64,000 nt of DNA, from assembly GCA_024672275.1 (NCBI GenBank), contig GCA_024672275.1_4536.1. The stretch is one strand, 5' to 3'. This DNA comes from a phage. Under the pieces are notes generated by a model. The model was not told the origin of the DNA, did no database searches, and saw nothing but the letters and a program-made list of their open reading frames with translations. The translations under genes and the position numbers were made by a program. Shown in pieces: positions 4,379 through 54,566 of the stretch. Within the stretch, counting starts at the first letter, position 1. Every line of letters starts with the position of its first letter.

Positions 4379-5121
4379 TAATCCTCCTCAAGAGTTGAAT
4401 AAAATTGAAGACCACCGTCCATATCGAAATAAGCAAATGTTAAGTTATTATTGAACACAGATCCAGTATCCATATAAACACGATTCGCATTGATAATAGG
4501 TGTTTTTACATAAGAGTGTCCATGAAACACATAATCCACACCCATCACAACAGGAAGTTTCATTCCCTCTTTAGCACAATCCACCATATCTCTGTCCCAC
4601 ATAAGTGCTTCAGCAAAACGGTTTTCCTGTGTTTTTGTCATCTTCGAAGTGTATTCTGGAATATCTGTTACAGGGAGATATTCCAAAGAAGACGGATACC
4701 CACCATGAATAAACGCAAGTTTCATGCCTCTGTAGTTAACAATGAGAACAACAGGTAAATCTTCTGTCATCATTGCTAAGGCTGTAGCTCCTTCTTCACC
4801 ACATTCTTCAAGGACCGTATATCCTCCATTTTGATACCAACACTCGAAGTAGCTACGATCTCCTTCCAGCATACCTTTAATCATCATGTCTTCATGATTT
4901 CCACGAATAGCGTAGCGATTGTGTTTACGAGTAAATTCTAAAACACAACGAAAGTTTTGCTTTCCACGGTCAGTAAGATCTCCTAAAGATACAACTACAT
5001 CTGTATCTCGGATACCTAACTTTGCCTTTCCTTTTTCATACAAATTATAACAACCGTGTAGATCTCCAATTATAAAAAGATCTTGATCGCTTTTAACAGT
5101 AATTTCTCTGTGTATGATCAC
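4378..5121 (-). CDS. serine/threonine protein phosphatase (PPP family, lambda-phosphatase-like)
   Basis: GDLHG, GDLTDRG and GNHE motifs in canonical order. Confidence 0.8.
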   Translation of the reverse strand: MIIHREITVKSDQDLFIIGDLHGCYNLYEKGKAKLGIRDTDVVVSLGDLTDRGKQNFRCVLEFTRKHNRYAIRGNHEDMMIKGMLEGDRSYFECWYQNGGYTVLEECGEEGATALAMMTEDLPVVLIVNYRGMKLAFIHGGYPSSLEYLPVTDIPEYTSKMTKTQENRFAEALMWDRDMVDCAKEGMKLPVVMGVDYVFHGHSYVKTPIINANRVYMDTGSVFNNNLTFAYFDMDGGLQFYSTLEED

Positions 5122-6736: not shown

Positions 6737-7246
6737 TTAAACAAAATAAAATGGTTGAGAGAGGCCCAAACGATTCTTTGGGTCGTATACATACCAAGCG
6801 TATGCTGTCTTATCTGTTCCACCTGCAACAAACGAAGGCCGTTCTGAAAGGACTATAAGGTTTGTTGGTGGATTCTTTTGATGGAACTCTCGTCGTTTCT
6901 TTGACTCCAAGAAGCCCAACCGAAGAAGATAAATACAAACATCCGCCTCTTTTAAGCTCTTTTCCAAGAACTCCATTGCTAACTTAAATGGAGGATTTGT
7001 GATTATAATGTCGGGACGATTTTCCCATTCATGACTAAAATAATCTTTACCTTCTTCAAGTTCGCAATATTCTGAACCTTCAGGAAAATGGCGATAAATC
7101 GCTTCAGCTTCACCTCTGCAAGGTTCTGCAAAAACCCAACCTTCTTCCTTTAGATTTTTGAAATCTATAACACTAAACAAACTATTGATTGCTTTTTGCG
7201 GTGTCGGATAATAATCGCTCGTTGGGCGATCATAATCTAATGCCAT
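6737..7246 (-). CDS. phage-type DNA N6-adenine methyltransferase (Dam-like)
   Basis: DYYPTP near N-terminus and DIIITNPPF (NPPF catalytic motif). Confidence 0.55.
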   Translation of the reverse strand: MALDYDRPTSDYYPTPQKAINSLFSVIDFKNLKEEGWVFAEPCRGEAEAIYRHFPEGSEYCELEEGKDYFSHEWENRPDIIITNPPFKLAMEFLEKSLKEADVCIYLLRLGFLESKKRREFHQKNPPTNLIVLSERPSFVAGGTDKTAYAWYVYDPKNRLGLSQPFYFV

Positions 7247-30513: not shown

Positions 30514-30791
30514 TTTGCATTCCTCTTGTTGTTGATAACATCCATAGCAGTATATGGTTTATTAGTGCCATGATACTCCAGAATCATTGGAGAGCCTTCT
30601 TGCACTACTTCAAAGATACCATAAACAGAACTTTCAGCAAATACCATTTGCTTCGTGCCTTCATCGTTTACAACGAGAGAAAACTTCTTGCCTGTCCCGT
30701 TGAGGATCTCATATTTCTTGCCAGCAGTGAATAATCCAGAGTACCACTCATTATCTGTTGCTTTTACACACTTCAGGAAAGTCTTGATCAT
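30510..30791 (-). CDS. hypothetical protein
   Basis: 93-aa ORF. Confidence 0.45.
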   Translation of the reverse strand: MIKTFLKCVKATDNEWYSGLFTAGKKYEILNGTGKKFSLVVNDEGTKQMVFAESSVYGIFEVVQEGSPMILEYHGTNKPYTAMDVINNKRNAK

Positions 30792-31356
30792 TTCTTTTTA
30801 TCTCCTCTTTTAATCTATCTACTATACGAACATCATAGACGCCCTCTGTATACATGTCAATAACTTCTTCAAGATAAACTTTTTTAGCTTTTCTGTAAGC
30901 TTCTTTTGCTGCCTCTTCTGTAGAAAAACTTCCAAGATAGAAGCCCTTACCGAACTTACGGATGCTCGCTTGGTAGACCTTATCTCTCTTGTGATATGTA
31001 ACACCCCTATAAGATGTCGAACCCATAAGTGCAAAATTCACATACTCTGGTATAAAGACACACGTGCTTGGTGAATAAACTTTAGAATCGGAAAGAAAAT
31101 CCTTATCTAAAACTTTACCTTCCCAAGATTGACTCTCCATCCAGTTTTTGAAGTTAGAGAAGACCAACCATTCATCACAAACTTGAGCATTTTTGTATGC
31201 TGGCATCCTTGCCAACTGCTTCTCACAGTAACACCTACGCAACATATCCGTCCATCTCTCGTAATAAGGGCATGTCTTCCTTTTACCATCTTCTCCCCAA
31301 AAAGTAACTGGAACTTTTGAATCATTTATTCCTTTTCCGAACACTAGTTTTTTCAT
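30751..31356 (-). CDS. HNH-AP2-type homing endonuclease-like protein
   Basis: W..MLRRCY...VCDEW block plus YRGVTYHK...GKGFYLGSF AP2-like segment; paralog of 24419..25048. Confidence 0.5.
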   Translation of the reverse strand: MKKLVFGKGINDSKVPVTFWGEDGKRKTCPYYERWTDMLRRCYCEKQLARMPAYKNAQVCDEWLVFSNFKNWMESQSWEGKVLDKDFLSDSKVYSPSTCVFIPEYVNFALMGSTSYRGVTYHKRDKVYQASIRKFGKGFYLGSFSTEEAAKEAYRKAKKVYLEEVIDMYTEGVYDVRIVDRLKEEIKRNDQDFPEVCKSNR

Positions 31357-32172: not shown

Positions 32173-32479
32173 CTTTAACCACCTCCAATTGCCTTTCGAG
32201 TTTGACTTTGTTTGAGAACTGATAATGACACAACTTACATTGCATGTCAACAATCTGATCGTGATTTAACCCTACAATTTTAACTTCCTTTGCACCATGC
32301 CACTCCAAATACTCAAAACCATCCAAATGATTACTCTTGTCCAACAGGAATGCTATCTGCTGCCATTCAATCTGAATGTCATTTAAATGATATGCTGCAC
32401 AGAAGATATCCTCATAGTAAAAGACGATCATTGTCATTGCTTCGTCCAGCACAACTACCTCTTGTCTTGTAAATCTCAT
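32156..32479 (-). CDS. hypothetical protein (first gene of leftward transcription unit)
   Basis: 107 aa, TAGGAGG RBS. Confidence 0.5.
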   Translation of the reverse strand: MRFTRQEVVVLDEAMTMIVFYYEDIFCAAYHLNDIQIEWQQIAFLLDKSNHLDGFEYLEWHGAKEVKIVGLNHDQIVDMQCKLCHYQFSNKVKLERQLEVVKDDSTN

Positions 32480-32734
32480 TCTAGCCTCCTAAACGCGTCT
32501 CTGACGCACTTTTTATATATAAGATGATAAATCACCTTACCTAGTAAGTGAACTTGCTCTACGAGCCTCTTATGAAGCTTATGTTATAGGATATACTATT
32601 GCTACCTGTTTAAGCAAGGTTTTTGCACACAGAAAATAATTTTTAATAAAACTCTTGACTTTTGTGTTCGAAGTATGCTACCCTAGAAATCTATTAACGA
32701 GCGCAGCGAGTTAAGGTTTTAGGTTGTTGATGTA

Positions 32735-32766
32735 GTACTCTGTACTCAAGTACTGTACTCCGTACT
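32735..32766. repeat. five closely spaced GTACT direct repeats
   Basis: GTACT at 32735, 32742, 32750, 32755, 32762; related (A)GTACAG motifs recur at 32838-32868 and 32940-32950. Confidence 0.7.
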
Positions 32767-32770
32767 AGAT

Positions 32771-32820
32771 TAATAATTATTAAATATTAATAATTATTAA
32801 ATATTAATAATAAATAATTA
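32771..32820. repeat. AT-only 17-bp tandem repeat (taataattattaaatat x2 plus partial), ends in palindrome ttagatctaa
   Basis: Exact duplication 32771-32787 and 32788-32804. Confidence 0.8.
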
Positions 32821-32917
32821 TTAGATCTAACAAACAGGTACAGTGTATCAGAACTGGTACGTACAGATCAACTTCTATCAATTAAAAAATAAAATAATAA
32901 ATTATTATAAATAATAC

Positions 32918-32946
32918 TTGATCTATAGATCAGTATGAAGTACAGT
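32918..32946 (+). promoter_or_regulatory. candidate rightward promoter (TTGATC-17-TACAGT) overlapping 14-bp perfect palindrome TGATCTATAGATCA
   Basis: Palindrome 32919-32932 contains two GATC sites; strong RBS and ATG at 32979 downstream. Confidence 0.4.
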
Positions 32947-32978
32947 ACGTAACATCTTAACAAGAAGGGAGGTGTGCA

Positions 32979-33164
32979 ATGATTAGTGAGAATCCGTGCA
33001 AATGGCATCATGTGCCTATTAAAGATTGTATGTCTTGTAATCCACGTTCTATTTATAACATTGCATCTTATGATGATGACAATGTGTTAGACGATGATGA
33101 AGGCTGGGAGGATTTAGATTGGACTGGTTATGAAACCAAAAAGGATAAAATTATTCCTAGTTGA
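32979..33164 (+). CDS. small Cys-containing protein
   Basis: 61 aa, GGGAGGTG RBS. Confidence 0.5.
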   Translation: MISENPCKWHHVPIKDCMSCNPRSIYNIASYDDDNVLDDDEGWEDLDWTGYETKKDKIIPS

Positions 33165-33201
33165 CTTAAGATACCCTTCGTGCTAAACTAGAAGTGAGGA
33201 G

Positions 33202-33956: not shown

Positions 33957-34031
33957 GGCCCTGTAGCTCAATGGGAGAGCTGTCGGCTCATAACCGATAG
34001 GTAGCTGGATCGAAACCAGCCAGGGCCACCA
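33957..34031 (+). tRNA. tRNA with CAU anticodon (Met or lysidine-Ile), CCA encoded
   Basis: Hand-folded: 7-bp acceptor ggccctg/cagggcc, anticodon loop ctCATaa, T-loop atcgaaa. Confidence 0.7.
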
Positions 34032-34033
34032 AC

Positions 34034-34108
34034 GTCTTTATGGTGTAATGGATAGCACAGGAGTCTTCTAAACTCTTAGTCAAGGTTCGATTCCTTGTAA
34101 AGACACCA
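34034..34108 (+). tRNA. tRNA-Arg (anticodon UCU)
   Basis: Acceptor gtcttta/taaagac, loop ctTCTaa, T-arm caagg-ttcgatt-ccttg, CCA encoded. Confidence 0.7.
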
Positions 34109-34304
34109 GAACATTTTAACATGAATTAGCTCAAGTGATTTGAACCCACTACTGATCATGGTGGCAGAGAATGAGGCAAGTATGTCAGACATTATAAACA
34201 AAGGCCACGGTTATATTAGAAGACATAAATGCTCGAAGAGCACCGTTCGTTGAGAACGGTGGTTGGTGGAGTCACCATTCATGGTAAAATGTTTTAAAAA
34301 ACTA

Positions 34305-34334
34305 TTGACAACTAACATTATTTTATGTTAGATT
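34305..34334 (+). promoter_or_regulatory. sigma70-like promoter (TTGACA-18-TAGATT), ACTATTGACAA family
   Basis: About 8 nt upstream of tRNA-Ser 5' end. Confidence 0.5.
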
Positions 34335-34342
34335 ATAAGTAT

Positions 34343-34433
34343 GGAAGGGCAAATCGACGTGGCGACGAAAACGGTCTTGAAAACCGCCGAGCTTGAAAGA
34401 GCCTTGGGAGTTCGACTCTCCCTCCTTCCGCCA
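34343..34433 (+). tRNA. tRNA-Ser (anticodon UGA), class II
   Basis: Long variable arm, loop ctTGAaa, T-arm gggag-ttcgact-ctccc, discriminator G, CCA encoded. Confidence 0.7.
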
Positions 34434-34437
34434 GATT

Positions 34438-34523
34438 GGTAGATTGGTGAAATGGTAGCCACGACAGTTTGCTAAACTGTAGTCGGAAACGGCGTGTAGG
34501 TTCGAGTCCTACATCTACCGCCA
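34438..34523 (+). tRNA. tRNA-Ser (anticodon GCU), class II
   Basis: Acceptor ggtagat/atctacc, stem acagt/actgt, loop ttGCTaa, long variable arm, discriminator G. Confidence 0.7.
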
Positions 34524-34653
34524 AGTTCTTTTTAATATAGCTTACTTTAATAGAGTAAACTTTCGGCAGATGGCCCCCACCATCTTACCGATACCTCATA
34601 GTTAGTGGTGCGAACACTGGCTATTTTAAAAAGAATTTAAATATTAGTATTTA

Positions 34654-34741
34654 GGTGAGTTAATTCCGTAGGGGTAGCGGGGCAGACTGTAAATCTGTTA
34701 TCATTGCGATTCGGGTGGTTCGACTCCATCACTCACCACCA
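34654..34741 (+). tRNA. tRNA-Tyr (anticodon GUA), class II
   Basis: Acceptor ggtgagt/actcacc, loop ctGTAaa, long variable arm, CCA encoded. Confidence 0.65.
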
Positions 34742-34747
34742 AATTAA

Positions 34748-34833
34748 GATGAGTTGGCTGAACGGTTTAAGCGGCGGACTGTTAATCCGTGTTCGAAAGA
34801 ACGATATAGGTTCAAATCCTATACTCATCGCCA
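34748..34833 (+). tRNA. unusual tRNA: Asn-type anticodon arm (GUU) in a long-variable-arm (class II-like) scaffold, discriminator G
   Basis: 86 nt with CCA; stem gcgga/tccgt, loop ctGTTaa; 15-nt variable region gttc-gaaa-gaac. Confidence 0.55.
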
Positions 34834-34840
34834 GAATTAT

Positions 34841-34917
34841 GGACTTGTAGAGTTAAGGTAAACCCCCAGTCGCCAAGAGGCTTCTGGAATTGCAGGTATC
34901 GAATCCTGCCGAGTCCC
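34841..34917 (+). pseudogene. degenerate tRNA-like element
   Basis: Acceptor ggacttg/cgagtcc and T-arm-like gcagg...cctgc (8-nt loop) but no regular anticodon arm; no CCA. Confidence 0.3.
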
Positions 34918-34923
34918 AGCTTT

Positions 34924-34998
34924 GCTCCTATAGTATAATGGCTATTACAACGGTTTTGTAATCCGTGGATCTCTGTTCGATTCAGAGTGGGAGCACCA
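34924..34998 (+). tRNA. tRNA-Thr (anticodon UGU)
   Basis: Acceptor gctccta/tgggagc with one GU, D-arm gtataatggctattac, loop ttTGTaa, T-arm ctctg-ttcgatt-cagag, CCA. Confidence 0.6.
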
Positions 34999-35271
34999 AT
35001 ACAACATTAAGGGCACTGTGATTGATCGTCGTATCCTGTGCACAAGGTCTGCTCGAAAGACAGTGTTCTTAGTATTGTGTTGATCACACAAAGAGTTACC
35101 TGAAACTTGACCGGAGTAGGGTTGGATGGGGCAAAAGAAGAAGCGGCTCTCCCATCGACAGCAACGAAGAATAATATTTGACTTTGGTTTTGTATTATTT
35201 TAAGTTAGCTTACCGAACGTAGGGCTAGTCACCCAATGGGATACTCGTCACTGTCCCACTCAATAAAACTA

Positions 35272-35301
35272 TTGACAACCAATAGTAAAATGTAGTATAG
35301 T
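35272..35301 (+). promoter_or_regulatory. sigma70-like promoter (TTGACA-18-TATAGT), ACTATTGACAA family
   Basis: About 11 nt upstream of tRNA-Gly. Confidence 0.55.
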
Positions 35302-35312
35302 AAAGATGTAGG

Positions 35313-35386
35313 GCGTTCTTGGTGTAGCGGTAGCATTCCGTCCTTCCAAGTCGGCGGCACGAGTTCGATCCTCGTAGAACGCTCCA
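35313..35386 (+). tRNA. tRNA-Gly (anticodon UCC)
   Basis: Acceptor gcgttct/agaacgc, loop ctTCCaa, T-arm acgag-ttcgatc-ctcgt, discriminator U, CCA. Confidence 0.65.
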
Positions 35387-35484
35387 AATTATTTAATAAA
35401 GGGTTGCCAGAAAACTTTCTCTTTTACTCATGGTTTTCTCCTTCTCTCACACCTCTTCTGGTTGCCCTTCATTAAATGATTTAT

Positions 35485-35560
35485 TGGTTTGTAGTGTAGT
35501 CCGGTAGCACACGACACTTTGACTGTCGTAGGTTTGGTTCAAATCCAGACAGACCAGCCA
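35485..35560 (+). tRNA. tRNA-Gln (anticodon UUG)
   Basis: U1-A72 start, stem cgaca/tgtcg, loop ctTTGac, discriminator G, CCA. Confidence 0.7.
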
Positions 35561-35565
35561 TATAA

Positions 35566-35642
35566 CGGAATTTAGCTCAGTTTGGTAGAGCATACGCTTT
35601 GGGAGCGTAGGGTCGCAGGTTCGAATCCTGCAATTCCGACCA
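35566..35642 (+). tRNA. tRNA-Pro (anticodon UGG)
   Basis: C1-G72, D-arm gctcagtttggtagagc, stem tacgc/gcgta, loop ttTGGga, T-arm gcagg-ttcgaat-cctgc, CCA. Confidence 0.75.
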
Positions 35643-35648
35643 ATCAAA

Positions 35649-53831: not shown

Positions 53832-54565
53832 TGGATGCATTGAATTTTGTCACAGCAATGCGTGGCTTAATGACAGAACAATTAGCAGAAGTCCATACAG
53901 CCTTGCCAGTCCGTGTGACTGGCGTTAATTATGGTGCTAAGACTGTCACCTTAGAATCTATTGTTAAAAACACACGATCTAGTGAAGATGAAATAGATTA
54001 TCCTACTTTTGAAGATGTTCCTTTCATGGTTAATGGTGGTGGGACAGGAAGAATCTCATTCCCTATTAAATCAGGAGATTTAGGGACCGTTATATTTTCT
54101 GAACGAGATCCTTCTAATGCACTGCAAACTAGTGGGGAAACTTCTTCATCATCCACTTTTATGCAGCCTTGTGGATTATACCCTATTTGTTTTATTCCCA
54201 AAATAGCTACAGGAACAGATTCAACAGAAGCTGTAGATTCTGAAAAGGTAGTTATTTCTAATAACAAAAACACGTACGCTTCTTTCGACCCTACAGGTAA
54301 TATTTCAATATGGAATAGTCAAGGGATGAAAATAGACATTACTACCTCCGGTATTACTATTACAGATGGCACAGGGACTTTGGATCTAAAAGGTGGTAAT
54401 TTAACTTTCAAAGGCGGCGTAGCAGATATCAATGGTCTTAAAATAGATCAGAACGGTTTGATGACAGATGGTAATGGCATCGGATTCCATACTCACACGC
54501 ACACGGTTCGTAATATTCAGAGCGGTAGCTCAAGTGCCGAGTCCTTAAAACCAACAGGAGCCTAA
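53831..54565 (+). CDS. baseplate central spike protein (P2 gpV-like)
   Basis: C-terminal Gly/Thr-rich repeats ending GIGFHTHTHT, resembling His-rich spike tip. Confidence 0.5.
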   Translation: MDALNFVTAMRGLMTEQLAEVHTALPVRVTGVNYGAKTVTLESIVKNTRSSEDEIDYPTFEDVPFMVNGGGTGRISFPIKSGDLGTVIFSERDPSNALQTSGETSSSSTFMQPCGLYPICFIPKIATGTDSTEAVDSEKVVISNNKNTYASFDPTGNISIWNSQGMKIDITTSGITITDGTGTLDLKGGNLTFKGGVADINGLKIDQNGLMTDGNGIGFHTHTHTVRNIQSGSSSAESLKPTGA

Positions 54566-54566
54566 C

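Follow-up and report, generated by a model that had tools for sequence, protein, structure and literature searches.

Predicted compound promoter hub in the divergent gap of a phAPEC8-like Escherichia coli myovirus

What is the role of a noncoding gap that parts the leftward from the rightward gene block of a virulent phage? We considered the 500-bp gap at 32480-32978 in a 64,000-nucleotide stretch of phage DNA (NCBI GenBank assembly GCA_024672275.1, contig GCA_024672275.1_4536.1), the whole of which we call the window. The window, judged by its sequence, is a piece of a Phapecoctavirus (phAPEC8-like) E. coli myovirus genome; the Phapecoctavirus genomes phAPEC8, ESCO13, Mt1B1_P17, and Schickermooser are 98-99% identical to the 2-kb stretch around the gap. 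The first leftward gene begins with an ATG at 32479 (-), and the first rightward gene with an ATG at 32979 (+). Phages of the phAPEC8 type are common therapy candidates, and the gap is an obvious place to seek promoters, an origin, and regulation; the literature on the subfamily yielded no transcriptome or origin data. A preliminary description of the locus had read its repeats and palindromes as a replication origin and/or an operator-controlled divergent promoter region. We favor promoters: with a probability of roughly 0.6, the gap is the main early-transcription control region of the phage, a compound hub of host-type promoters (below, the hub).

Both strands were scanned for sigma-70 consensus matches with a 16- to 18-bp spacer, and all promoters named here are predicted in this way rather than mapped. 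Four lie in the gap, upstream of the first gene in each direction. Leftward, PL1 (TTCACT-17-TATCAT, 32552-32524, minus strand) is found by the consensus scan just upstream of the ATG at 32479 and would start near 32517 (-). PL2 (32871-32842, minus strand) joins the -35 hexamer TTGATC (32871-32866) to the -10 region TGaTACACT (TACACT at 32847-32842) across an 18-nt spacer that contains GTACGTAC and the TG extension; its predicted start is near 32835 (-). Rightward, P1 (TTGACT-18-TGcTACCCT, with an extended -10; 32655-32684, plus strand) would start near 32690 and is preceded by a 19-bp A/T-only tract at 32633-32651. P2 (TTGATC-17-TACAGT, 32918-32946, plus strand) overlaps TGATCTATAGATCA and GTACAGTAC (32940-32948); its start is predicted near 32952, followed by the ribosome-binding site GGGAGG and then the ATG at 32979. 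P1 and PL2 face each other, their predicted starts ~145 bp apart, with an array of GTACT repeats and an A/T-only tandem repeat in between. PL2 and P2 stand back to back.

Exactly between the -35 hexamers of PL2 and P2, where UP elements lie, there is a 37-bp A/T-only run (32880-32916), the second-longest such run and the second least stable 50-bp duplex in the window. The sequence upstream of the promoter-like sites is 84-96% A/T, with 88-96% for the PL2 and P2 -35 hexamers. The same hexamers account for another feature. The 14-bp perfect palindrome with two GATC sites that had been reported over a candidate promoter is indeed present (TGATCTATAGATCA, 32919-32932), and it consists of the P2 -35 plus part of the P2 spacer, in the promoter-like TTGATC-17-TACAGT. 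Hence, two GATC sites and the palindrome are there because PL2 and P2 both use TTGATC as their -35. The second divergent gap of Schickermooser (130326-130444, merely 118 bp) offers another case of a TTGATC -35, in its rightward predicted promoter; TTGATC-16-TATCAT and TTGACA-16-TAAGAT overlap there, and that gap has neither a GTAC cluster nor an A/T-only run. By number, the GATC sites are not beyond chance alone, since four in 110 bp of the hub give a scan-corrected P of ~0.7. The hub of the more distant relative phiWec188 holds five in 143 bp (0.4 expected), and three of the four GATC sites of our hub align with it. Among close relatives, the second GATC of the palindrome is gone in four (phAPEC8 and three others), and the one at 32866 is gone in phAPEC8. 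The other reported palindrome, ttagatctaa, is likewise perfect (TTAGATCTAA, 32821-32830) and sits within a conserved block, AGATCTAACA(A/G)AC (32821-32835), at the predicted PL2 start. Altogether, 6 of the 58 perfect palindromes of at least 10 bp in the window fall in the gap, more than chance would put in this 0.8% of its length.

Are these promoters under constraint? We aligned 13 phAPEC8-type sequences across the whole gap. P1, the next 27 nt, the AGATCTAAC block, and the PL2 and P2 -35 hexamers are nearly or fully invariant among them, and 13 relatives share an identical PL1 -10 region. Further off, in phiWec188 and phiWec179, P1 and the block that follows it are intact, and PL2 and P2 are recognizable; phiWec188 keeps the PL2 hexamers as TTGATC-18-TACTAT around a diverged intervening sequence. 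P2-equivalent promoters occur in phiWec188 and in Justusliebigvirus VEcB (TTGACT-17-TAGAGT, with GATC in the spacer). Still more distant gaps, in VEcB, Citrobacter phage Tr1, and Klebsiella phage phi1_175008, were located through the left-flank protein at 34-58% identity. All three keep TTGAC, a 17- to 18-bp spacer, TG-TACCCTA, and then CGAGCG(C/A)AGCGAG, with 15-16 nt from TG-TACCCTA to this 13-mer as against 13 nt in the window and phiWec188. They also keep the A/T tract ahead of a P2-like promoter. AGATCTAACAGAC is kept in VEcB and Tr1, and these two also share the block at the PL2 start, as phiWec188 roughly does. Thus P1 (TTGAC, TG-TACCCTA) and the 13-mer CGAGCGNAGCGAG are invariant in five Stephanstirmvirinae lineages, save for one position that is C or A, even though the flanking protein is only 34-58% identical to that of the window across the five. 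By these alignments, P1 with the 13-mer, the AGATCTAACAGAC block, and the A/T tract with P2 appear to be the ancient, constrained parts of the gap. The divergent promoter region of the preliminary description is therefore upheld: sigma-70 promoters are predicted both ways, and their hexamers are kept in lineages whose surroundings have diverged.

In the fully annotated Schickermooser genome (151,194 bp), the counterpart of the hub is at 54492-54968. To its left, at 18.45-54.49 kb, lies a leftward block that is a nucleotide-metabolism operon of ~36 kb with ligases, exonucleases, ThyX, ribonucleotide reductase, and deoxythymidine diphosphate (dTDP)-rhamnose genes. To its right, at 54.97-95.1 kb, lies a rightward block of tRNAs and structural genes. 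The right flank of the gap in the window likewise has two further small genes after the first, then ten tRNA genes at 33957-35879, and a terminase gene at ~37.5 kb. In the arrangement that we propose, PL1 and PL2 would fire leftward into the ~36-kb operon, and P1 and P2 rightward into the three small genes and the tRNA cluster. The 37-bp A/T-only tract would serve PL2 and P2 jointly as a UP-like element, and Dam methylation or SeqA binding may tune these two promoters after replication. The repeats would lie in the doubly transcribed stretch between P1 and PL2, as clade-specific sequences on which replication tends to slip. Their likeliest role is to modulate expression, not an essential one; they could act as binding sites of a factor, as a block to elongating polymerase, or through RNA pairing of GUACUGUAC with GUACAGUAC at P2.

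Such an arrangement has precedents. Divergent or facing promoter regions are known from coliphages (lambda PR/PRM, 186 pR/pL), and Dam-sensitive promoters with GATC in a hexamer include IS10 pIN and dnaA P2. For phage rV5, bidirectional promoters at gene 10/11 and a skew that turns with the direction of transcription were described by the rV5 authors. The hub resembles these systems in its back-to-back and facing sigma-70 promoters, its palindromes over -35 and -10 elements, its A/T-rich upstream tracts, and the GATC inside its hexamers. It differs from them in that its promoters are predicted, the phage is virulent with no known repressor, and the repeats are in the transcribed overlap, not between a -35 and a -10. 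If the GTAC repeats or the 13-mer are functional, they would give a handle on temporal control or on the start of replication in these phages; otherwise the gap would be an ordinary promoter hub.

The GTAC repeats deserve closer attention. The five GTACT copies reported within 32 bp are found at 32735, 32742, 32750, 32755, and 32762 (array 32735-32766, plus strand; spacing 7, 8, 5, and 7), and the array includes two AGTACT palindromes and GTACTGTAC. It corresponds to about +45 to +75 of the predicted P1 transcript. The further GTACAG motifs are present as well, at 32838, 32861, and 32940; a right-hand group comprises GGTACAG and GGTACGTACAG (32837-32866), and the homologous stretch of phiWec188 is without GTAC. 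Beyond the array, the GTAC sites occupy the spacer and start of PL2 and span the -10 of P2. GTAC being palindromic, GTACTGTAC at 32750 is complementary to GTACAGTAC at 32940. The P1 leader RNA folds unusually well (z = -4.7), which is due to the palindromes and hence is no independent evidence.

The window as a whole avoids GTAC, with 49 sites against 186 expected from trinucleotides (ratio 0.26), the strongest depletion of any 4-base palindrome. Ten of the 49 nevertheless fall within 214 bp (32735-32948), for which the Poisson probability is ~4e-16, or ~1e-13 after scan correction. A coding effect can be set aside as the cause, since GTAC is missing altogether from the 2.4-kb noncoding tRNA region. 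In three other Schickermooser segments, we counted 25, 38, and 40 sites against 55, 142, and 76 expected, with at most three in any 250-bp stretch. As the rest of Schickermooser holds no comparable cluster, the GTAC cluster is unique in the genome. Other palindromes that are low in the window are CCGG (observed/expected, 0.40), GGCC (0.45), CTAG (0.53), and CGCG (0.53); GATC, at 0.93, is not depleted.

These figures bring us to the points that weigh against a plain promoter hub. The GTAC cluster is far too improbable for noise and is unique in a genome purged of GTAC; therefore, "modulatory repeat" accounts for too little of it. UP elements would not require an A/T tract as extreme as this one. 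A simple consensus scan yields no more promoter sites here than in shuffled sequence. Finally, the P1 -10 hexamer, TACCCT, is a poor one, yet it is strictly conserved without explanation. Of all the features, the GTAC cluster alone is left without a full account in ordinary terms.

Perhaps the GTAC sites are a switch? As GTAC dyads (GTAC-N0/1/3-GTAC), they could be operators of a clade-specific DNA-binding protein or targets of GTAC methylation that switch PL2, P2, and P1 read-through jointly. Their placement, over the PL2 spacer and start, the P2 -10, and +45 to +75 of P1, speaks for this, as does so extreme a cluster in a genome that purges GTAC even from its noncoding tRNA region. A further pointer comes from the BI-EHEC relative (OL505078), in which nearly every GTAC of the hub reads ATAC or GTAT. 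Of the 35 comparable GTAC sites across window positions 881-49787 (record 22300-72299), BI-EHEC differs at about half, against a background divergence of 1.6%, and the change is nearly always from G to A on the strand as deposited. The BI-EHEC assembly was made from nanopore reads only (Guppy 4.0.11, Flye, Medaka), and the likeliest reading of the changes is systematic miscalling at modified GTAC, not real mutation. It would follow that GTAC carries methylation, acquired in that host or set by the phage itself. Restriction-modification systems that recognize GTAC and methylate adenine at N6 are known, and GTAC modification would fit restriction pressure as the cause of GTAC avoidance, which would make the retained cluster more notable.

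Which enzyme could be involved? The Dam-like methyltransferase that had been ascribed to the window is not borne out: no open reading frame (ORF) of at least 100 amino acids carries DPPY, and the sole ORF of the window with the pattern [DNS]PP[YFW] (6740-7246) has no Pfam match. The annotated N6-adenine methyltransferase of the family has an NPPF motif and lies at 100304-101098 in Schickermooser, ~14 kb past the right end of the window. Sequence searches of Pfam, NCBIfam, and PDB gave no match for either of two putative DNA methyltransferases of the family, one with FDGSG/FPPC (our segment L017, 20767-21450, minus strand) and one with EPSAGEG/NPPF (segment L019, 28204-28998, minus strand), and so assigned them no specificity. 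Against a switch, the spacing between GTAC pairs is irregular, the GTAC sites are not conserved outside the clade, and the protein that would bind them is a putative one. We regard an operator or methylation switch as a tentative possibility, well short of an even chance.

Next to the GTACT array, the reported A/T-only 17-bp tandem duplication is present at 32769-32823. With a period of 17 and 3.2 copies, it outscores every other tandem repeat in the window, and every full unit contains the 14-bp palindrome TTAATAATTATTAA. Its 55 bp form the longest A/T-only run in the window and also its least stable 50-bp duplex (-41.9 versus a mean of -64.1 kcal/mol). No A/T-only run of at least 28 bp occurs in the three Schickermooser segments outside the hub-bearing one (record 22101-72100). 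The exact 17-bp duplication belongs to this isolate alone: each of the 12 relatives in the alignment has one unit fewer. The GTACT array varies as well: dw-ec lacks 13 bp of it (two units), one unit is mutated in phAPEC8 with the loss of one GTAC, and the copy number ranges from 3 to 5 among isolates. In phiWec188 and phiWec179, both the array and the A/T tandem give way to ~50 bp of unrelated sequence, which has GATC-containing repeats of its own. Neither phiWec188 nor Tr1 nor phi1_175008 has the array, and only remnants are found in VEcB; no GTAC cluster occurs in VEcB, Tr1, or phi1_175008. In this set of genomes, then, the GTACT array and the A/T tandem appear to be clade-specific and variable in copy number.

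Such variation is what neutral slippage would produce, and the array and the A/T tandem may be just that, products tolerated in a noncoding leader. Near-identical isolates differ in copy number, sister lineages lack the repeats, and the unit structure fits tandem duplication. What this leaves unaccounted for is the persistence of ten GTAC sites in 11 of 11 independent relatives despite genome-wide counterselection. We hold neutral slippage to be conceivable and, on balance, doubtful.

Several database records bear on the stability of these repeats. The nieznany record (MN850598) begins within the hub, most likely at an assembly break, and EP57 carries two deletions in the hub; the A/T repeats of the hub seem to break assemblies or to be unstable. 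The "repeat_region" annotations in three records proved to be mere 55-bp automatic tandem-repeat calls.

The sequence that follows P1 is as constrained as the promoter itself. The block CTATTAAC-GAGCGCAGCGAG-TTAAGGT (32691-32717, plus strand) is unique in the window, starts at about +2 of the P1 transcript, and contains the 13-mer CGAGCGNAGCGAG. The core of the 13-mer, GCGNAGC, is a mini-hairpin DNA motif, and the sole base that varies across the five lineages is the N of its GNA loop. The block could form a hairpin with a TTAAC/GTTAA stem, tandem G.A pairs, two G-C pairs, and the GNA loop. Mini-hairpins of the types GCGNAGC and GCGNNAGC are the subject of a 2026 review by Hirao (PMC13037366), which places the former at the primase-dependent origins of G4, St-1, and alpha3 and describes related GNA-loop mini-hairpins at RSF1010 ssiA (CCGAAGG) and at N4 virion-polymerase promoters. 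Our 13-mer resembles these in holding GCG(C/A)AGC with variation confined to N; it differs in being embedded in the promoter leader of a double-stranded DNA phage, and its hairpin is predicted from sequence. In six sequences, the flanks of the 12-mer pair in 92.9% of cells, compared with 19-50% in shifted controls, and two pairs in the flanking stem are compensatory. In an unfiltered set of 34 distinct module hits, the flank pairing equals that of the shifted controls. Since that set shows no pairing signal, the broad distribution in IMG/VR is unusable as evidence.

In a 148.7-kb IMG/VR contig, the module is found entire, as TTGACT-17-TGCTACCCT with the 13-mer; its setting is an ordinary 150-bp gap between two genes of the same direction, 80 nt ahead of an ATG and devoid of A/T-rich elements. 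As it sits in a same-direction gap, the module behaves as a promoter-plus-leader module. We therefore treat P1 and the 13-mer as a probable promoter with a conserved leader or a promoter-proximal element. This treatment accords with the promoter hub.

Related sequences turned up elsewhere. Between the first two rightward genes of the window, a promoter-like TTGACT-17-TGcTAAACTAGAA at 33161-33193 is like the P1 -10 region, TGCTACCCTAGAA. Two ~149-kb IMG/VR phage contigs have two module copies each (one at 4703-4759 of IMGVR_UViG_3300030441_000047), and one of the copies lies in a plain gap flanked by genes of like direction. The 12-mer GAGCGAAGCGAG forms tandem arrays in IMG/VR contigs, with ten copies of a ~42-bp unit in one (L077, 10230-10700) and nine in another (L035, 7870-8790). 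Modules of the form TACCCTA-(C)n-AACGAGCGNAGCGAG are paired back to back ~100 bp apart in L046 (2020-2165) and in ~25 similar IMG/VR contigs. Two contigs with AAGCGG motifs near the 12-mer, L022 and L030, proved by a terminase match to be tailed-phage fragments and neither plasmids nor microviruses. Matches of the 17-mer AACGAGCGCAGCGAGTT in IMG/VR were mostly to unrelated GC-rich coding DNA. A literature search for the 12-mer found no paper that describes it, all matches being vector sequences.

Could the hub also be a replication origin? In phage T7, the primary origin consists of promoters 1.1A and 1.1B and an A/T-rich region; T4 oriF and oriG combine a middle promoter with an unwinding element, and ColE1 combines RNA II with ssiA. 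By analogy, P1 would transcribe into the A/T element 80-130 nt downstream, an R-loop would form, and a T7-like replisome would start there, while GCGNAGC on the displaced strand would aid priming or bar single-stranded DNA-binding protein. The likeness in sequence to the T7, T4, and ColE1 origins lies in a promoter aimed at an easily melted A/T segment, T7-like replication genes, and a mini-hairpin of the priming-site type; the differences are the host sigma-70 promoter, the facing promoter, and an A/T-only tract that is not conserved in the subfamily.

Several observations suit such an origin. At the hub, the window has its longest A/T-only run and its least stable duplex, the most readily melted DNA of the genome, and the conserved P1 (predicted start ~32690) points into the A/T tract at 32769-32823. 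The genes of the family include those for a polymerase of PolA type and a primase-helicase of DnaB type; in Schickermooser, the replication genes (polymerase, N6-adenine methyltransferase, and primase-helicase) are at 97.7-103.4 kb, beyond the window. The 22-mer ATTAACGAGCGCAGCGAGTTAA is found unchanged in Vibrio phage vB_VcorM_GR28A (Ackermannviridae; segment L021, 1350-1525), flanked there by a 7-bp stem; it lies in a divergent gap, next to a terminator-like hairpin and an A/T-only run of 85 bp. The 13-mer GAGCGCAGCGAGT also occurs in ColE1-type plasmids, downstream of ori and within a stretch that over 2,000 of them conserve; ssiA lies there, and the 13-mer may overlap it exactly. GCGNAGC is reported at single-stranded DNA priming sites of G4, St-1, alpha3, and RSF1010 ssiA (PMC13037366).

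The cumulative GC-skew minimum, at 32569, and the AT-skew minimum, at 32763, also fall in the gap. However, the skew minimum coincides with the change in transcription direction, as in rV5, and because both turn at the hub, GC skew cannot tell the direction of replication from that of transcription. Across relatives the picture is mixed: P1 and an A/T-rich tract ahead of P2 are conserved, the extreme A/T-only tract is absent from phiWec188 and is not conserved beyond the phAPEC8-type clade, P1 and the 13-mer also occur in the plain same-direction gap without an A/T element, and the outer-stem pairing vanishes in the unfiltered 34 sequences. The deeply conserved parts are transcriptional elements. 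We consider a transcription-activated origin rather unlikely. An origin role may coexist with the promoter hub, and we think this unlikely also. A more elaborate version, in which P1 and the GCGNAGC signal are the ancient core of a transcription-primed origin to which the phAPEC8 clade added the A/T tract and a GTAC epigenetic switch, coupling transcription to replication, strikes us as decidedly improbable.

We also asked if the GTACT copies might be iterons, bound by a phage initiator that melts the adjoining A/T tract, as in lambda ori and plasmid oriV. Direct repeats do adjoin an A/T-rich tract here, with the 55-bp run as the adjacent candidate unwinding element and GATC nearby, a combination also seen in lambda ori, phage P1 oriR, oriV, and oriC-type regions, and the GTAC cluster is unique in the genome. 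Unlike the 17-22 bp of those origins, the repeated core is just 5 bp, and its irregular spacings (7, 8, 5, and 7) are out of helical phase. Copy number varies from 3 to 5 among isolates, sister lineages lack the array, and the GATC density is not significant by itself. No initiator-like domain was found in the ten neighboring ORFs, and so no initiator gene. A relaxed DnaA-box search gave one match (TTTTGCACA at 32621), with ~9 expected by chance in the window, and no cluster. An iteron-type origin is, in our judgment, very improbable.

From the GATC cluster it is 4.5 kb downstream to the terminase gene, and this position recalls packaging: the hub might be a pac site under GATC methylation, as in phage P1, or a terminal-repeat site. 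Korf et al. described a 328-bp terminal repeat in Schickermooser. We confirmed this direct repeat at the ends of the record (1-328 and 150867-151194), ~54 kb off the hub, and we rejected a packaging or terminal site, to which we assign next to no probability. Two further ideas, TrpR binding to GNACT half-sites and a boxA-like minus-strand reading (CGCTCGTTAAT), were dropped.

A Pfam search of the ten small ORFs that flank the gap found no domain except for one borderline AP2, the left-flank protein had no match in IMG/VR, and among Rfam models only tRNAs matched, all outside the hub. A homolog of the right-flank gene in Salmonella phage KE23 was set aside as not syntenic. The borderline AP2 domain belongs to a 201-amino-acid ORF (30754-31356, minus strand) that ESCO13 and Schickermooser lack at the same position and that is possibly an insertion of a homing-endonuclease-like gene.

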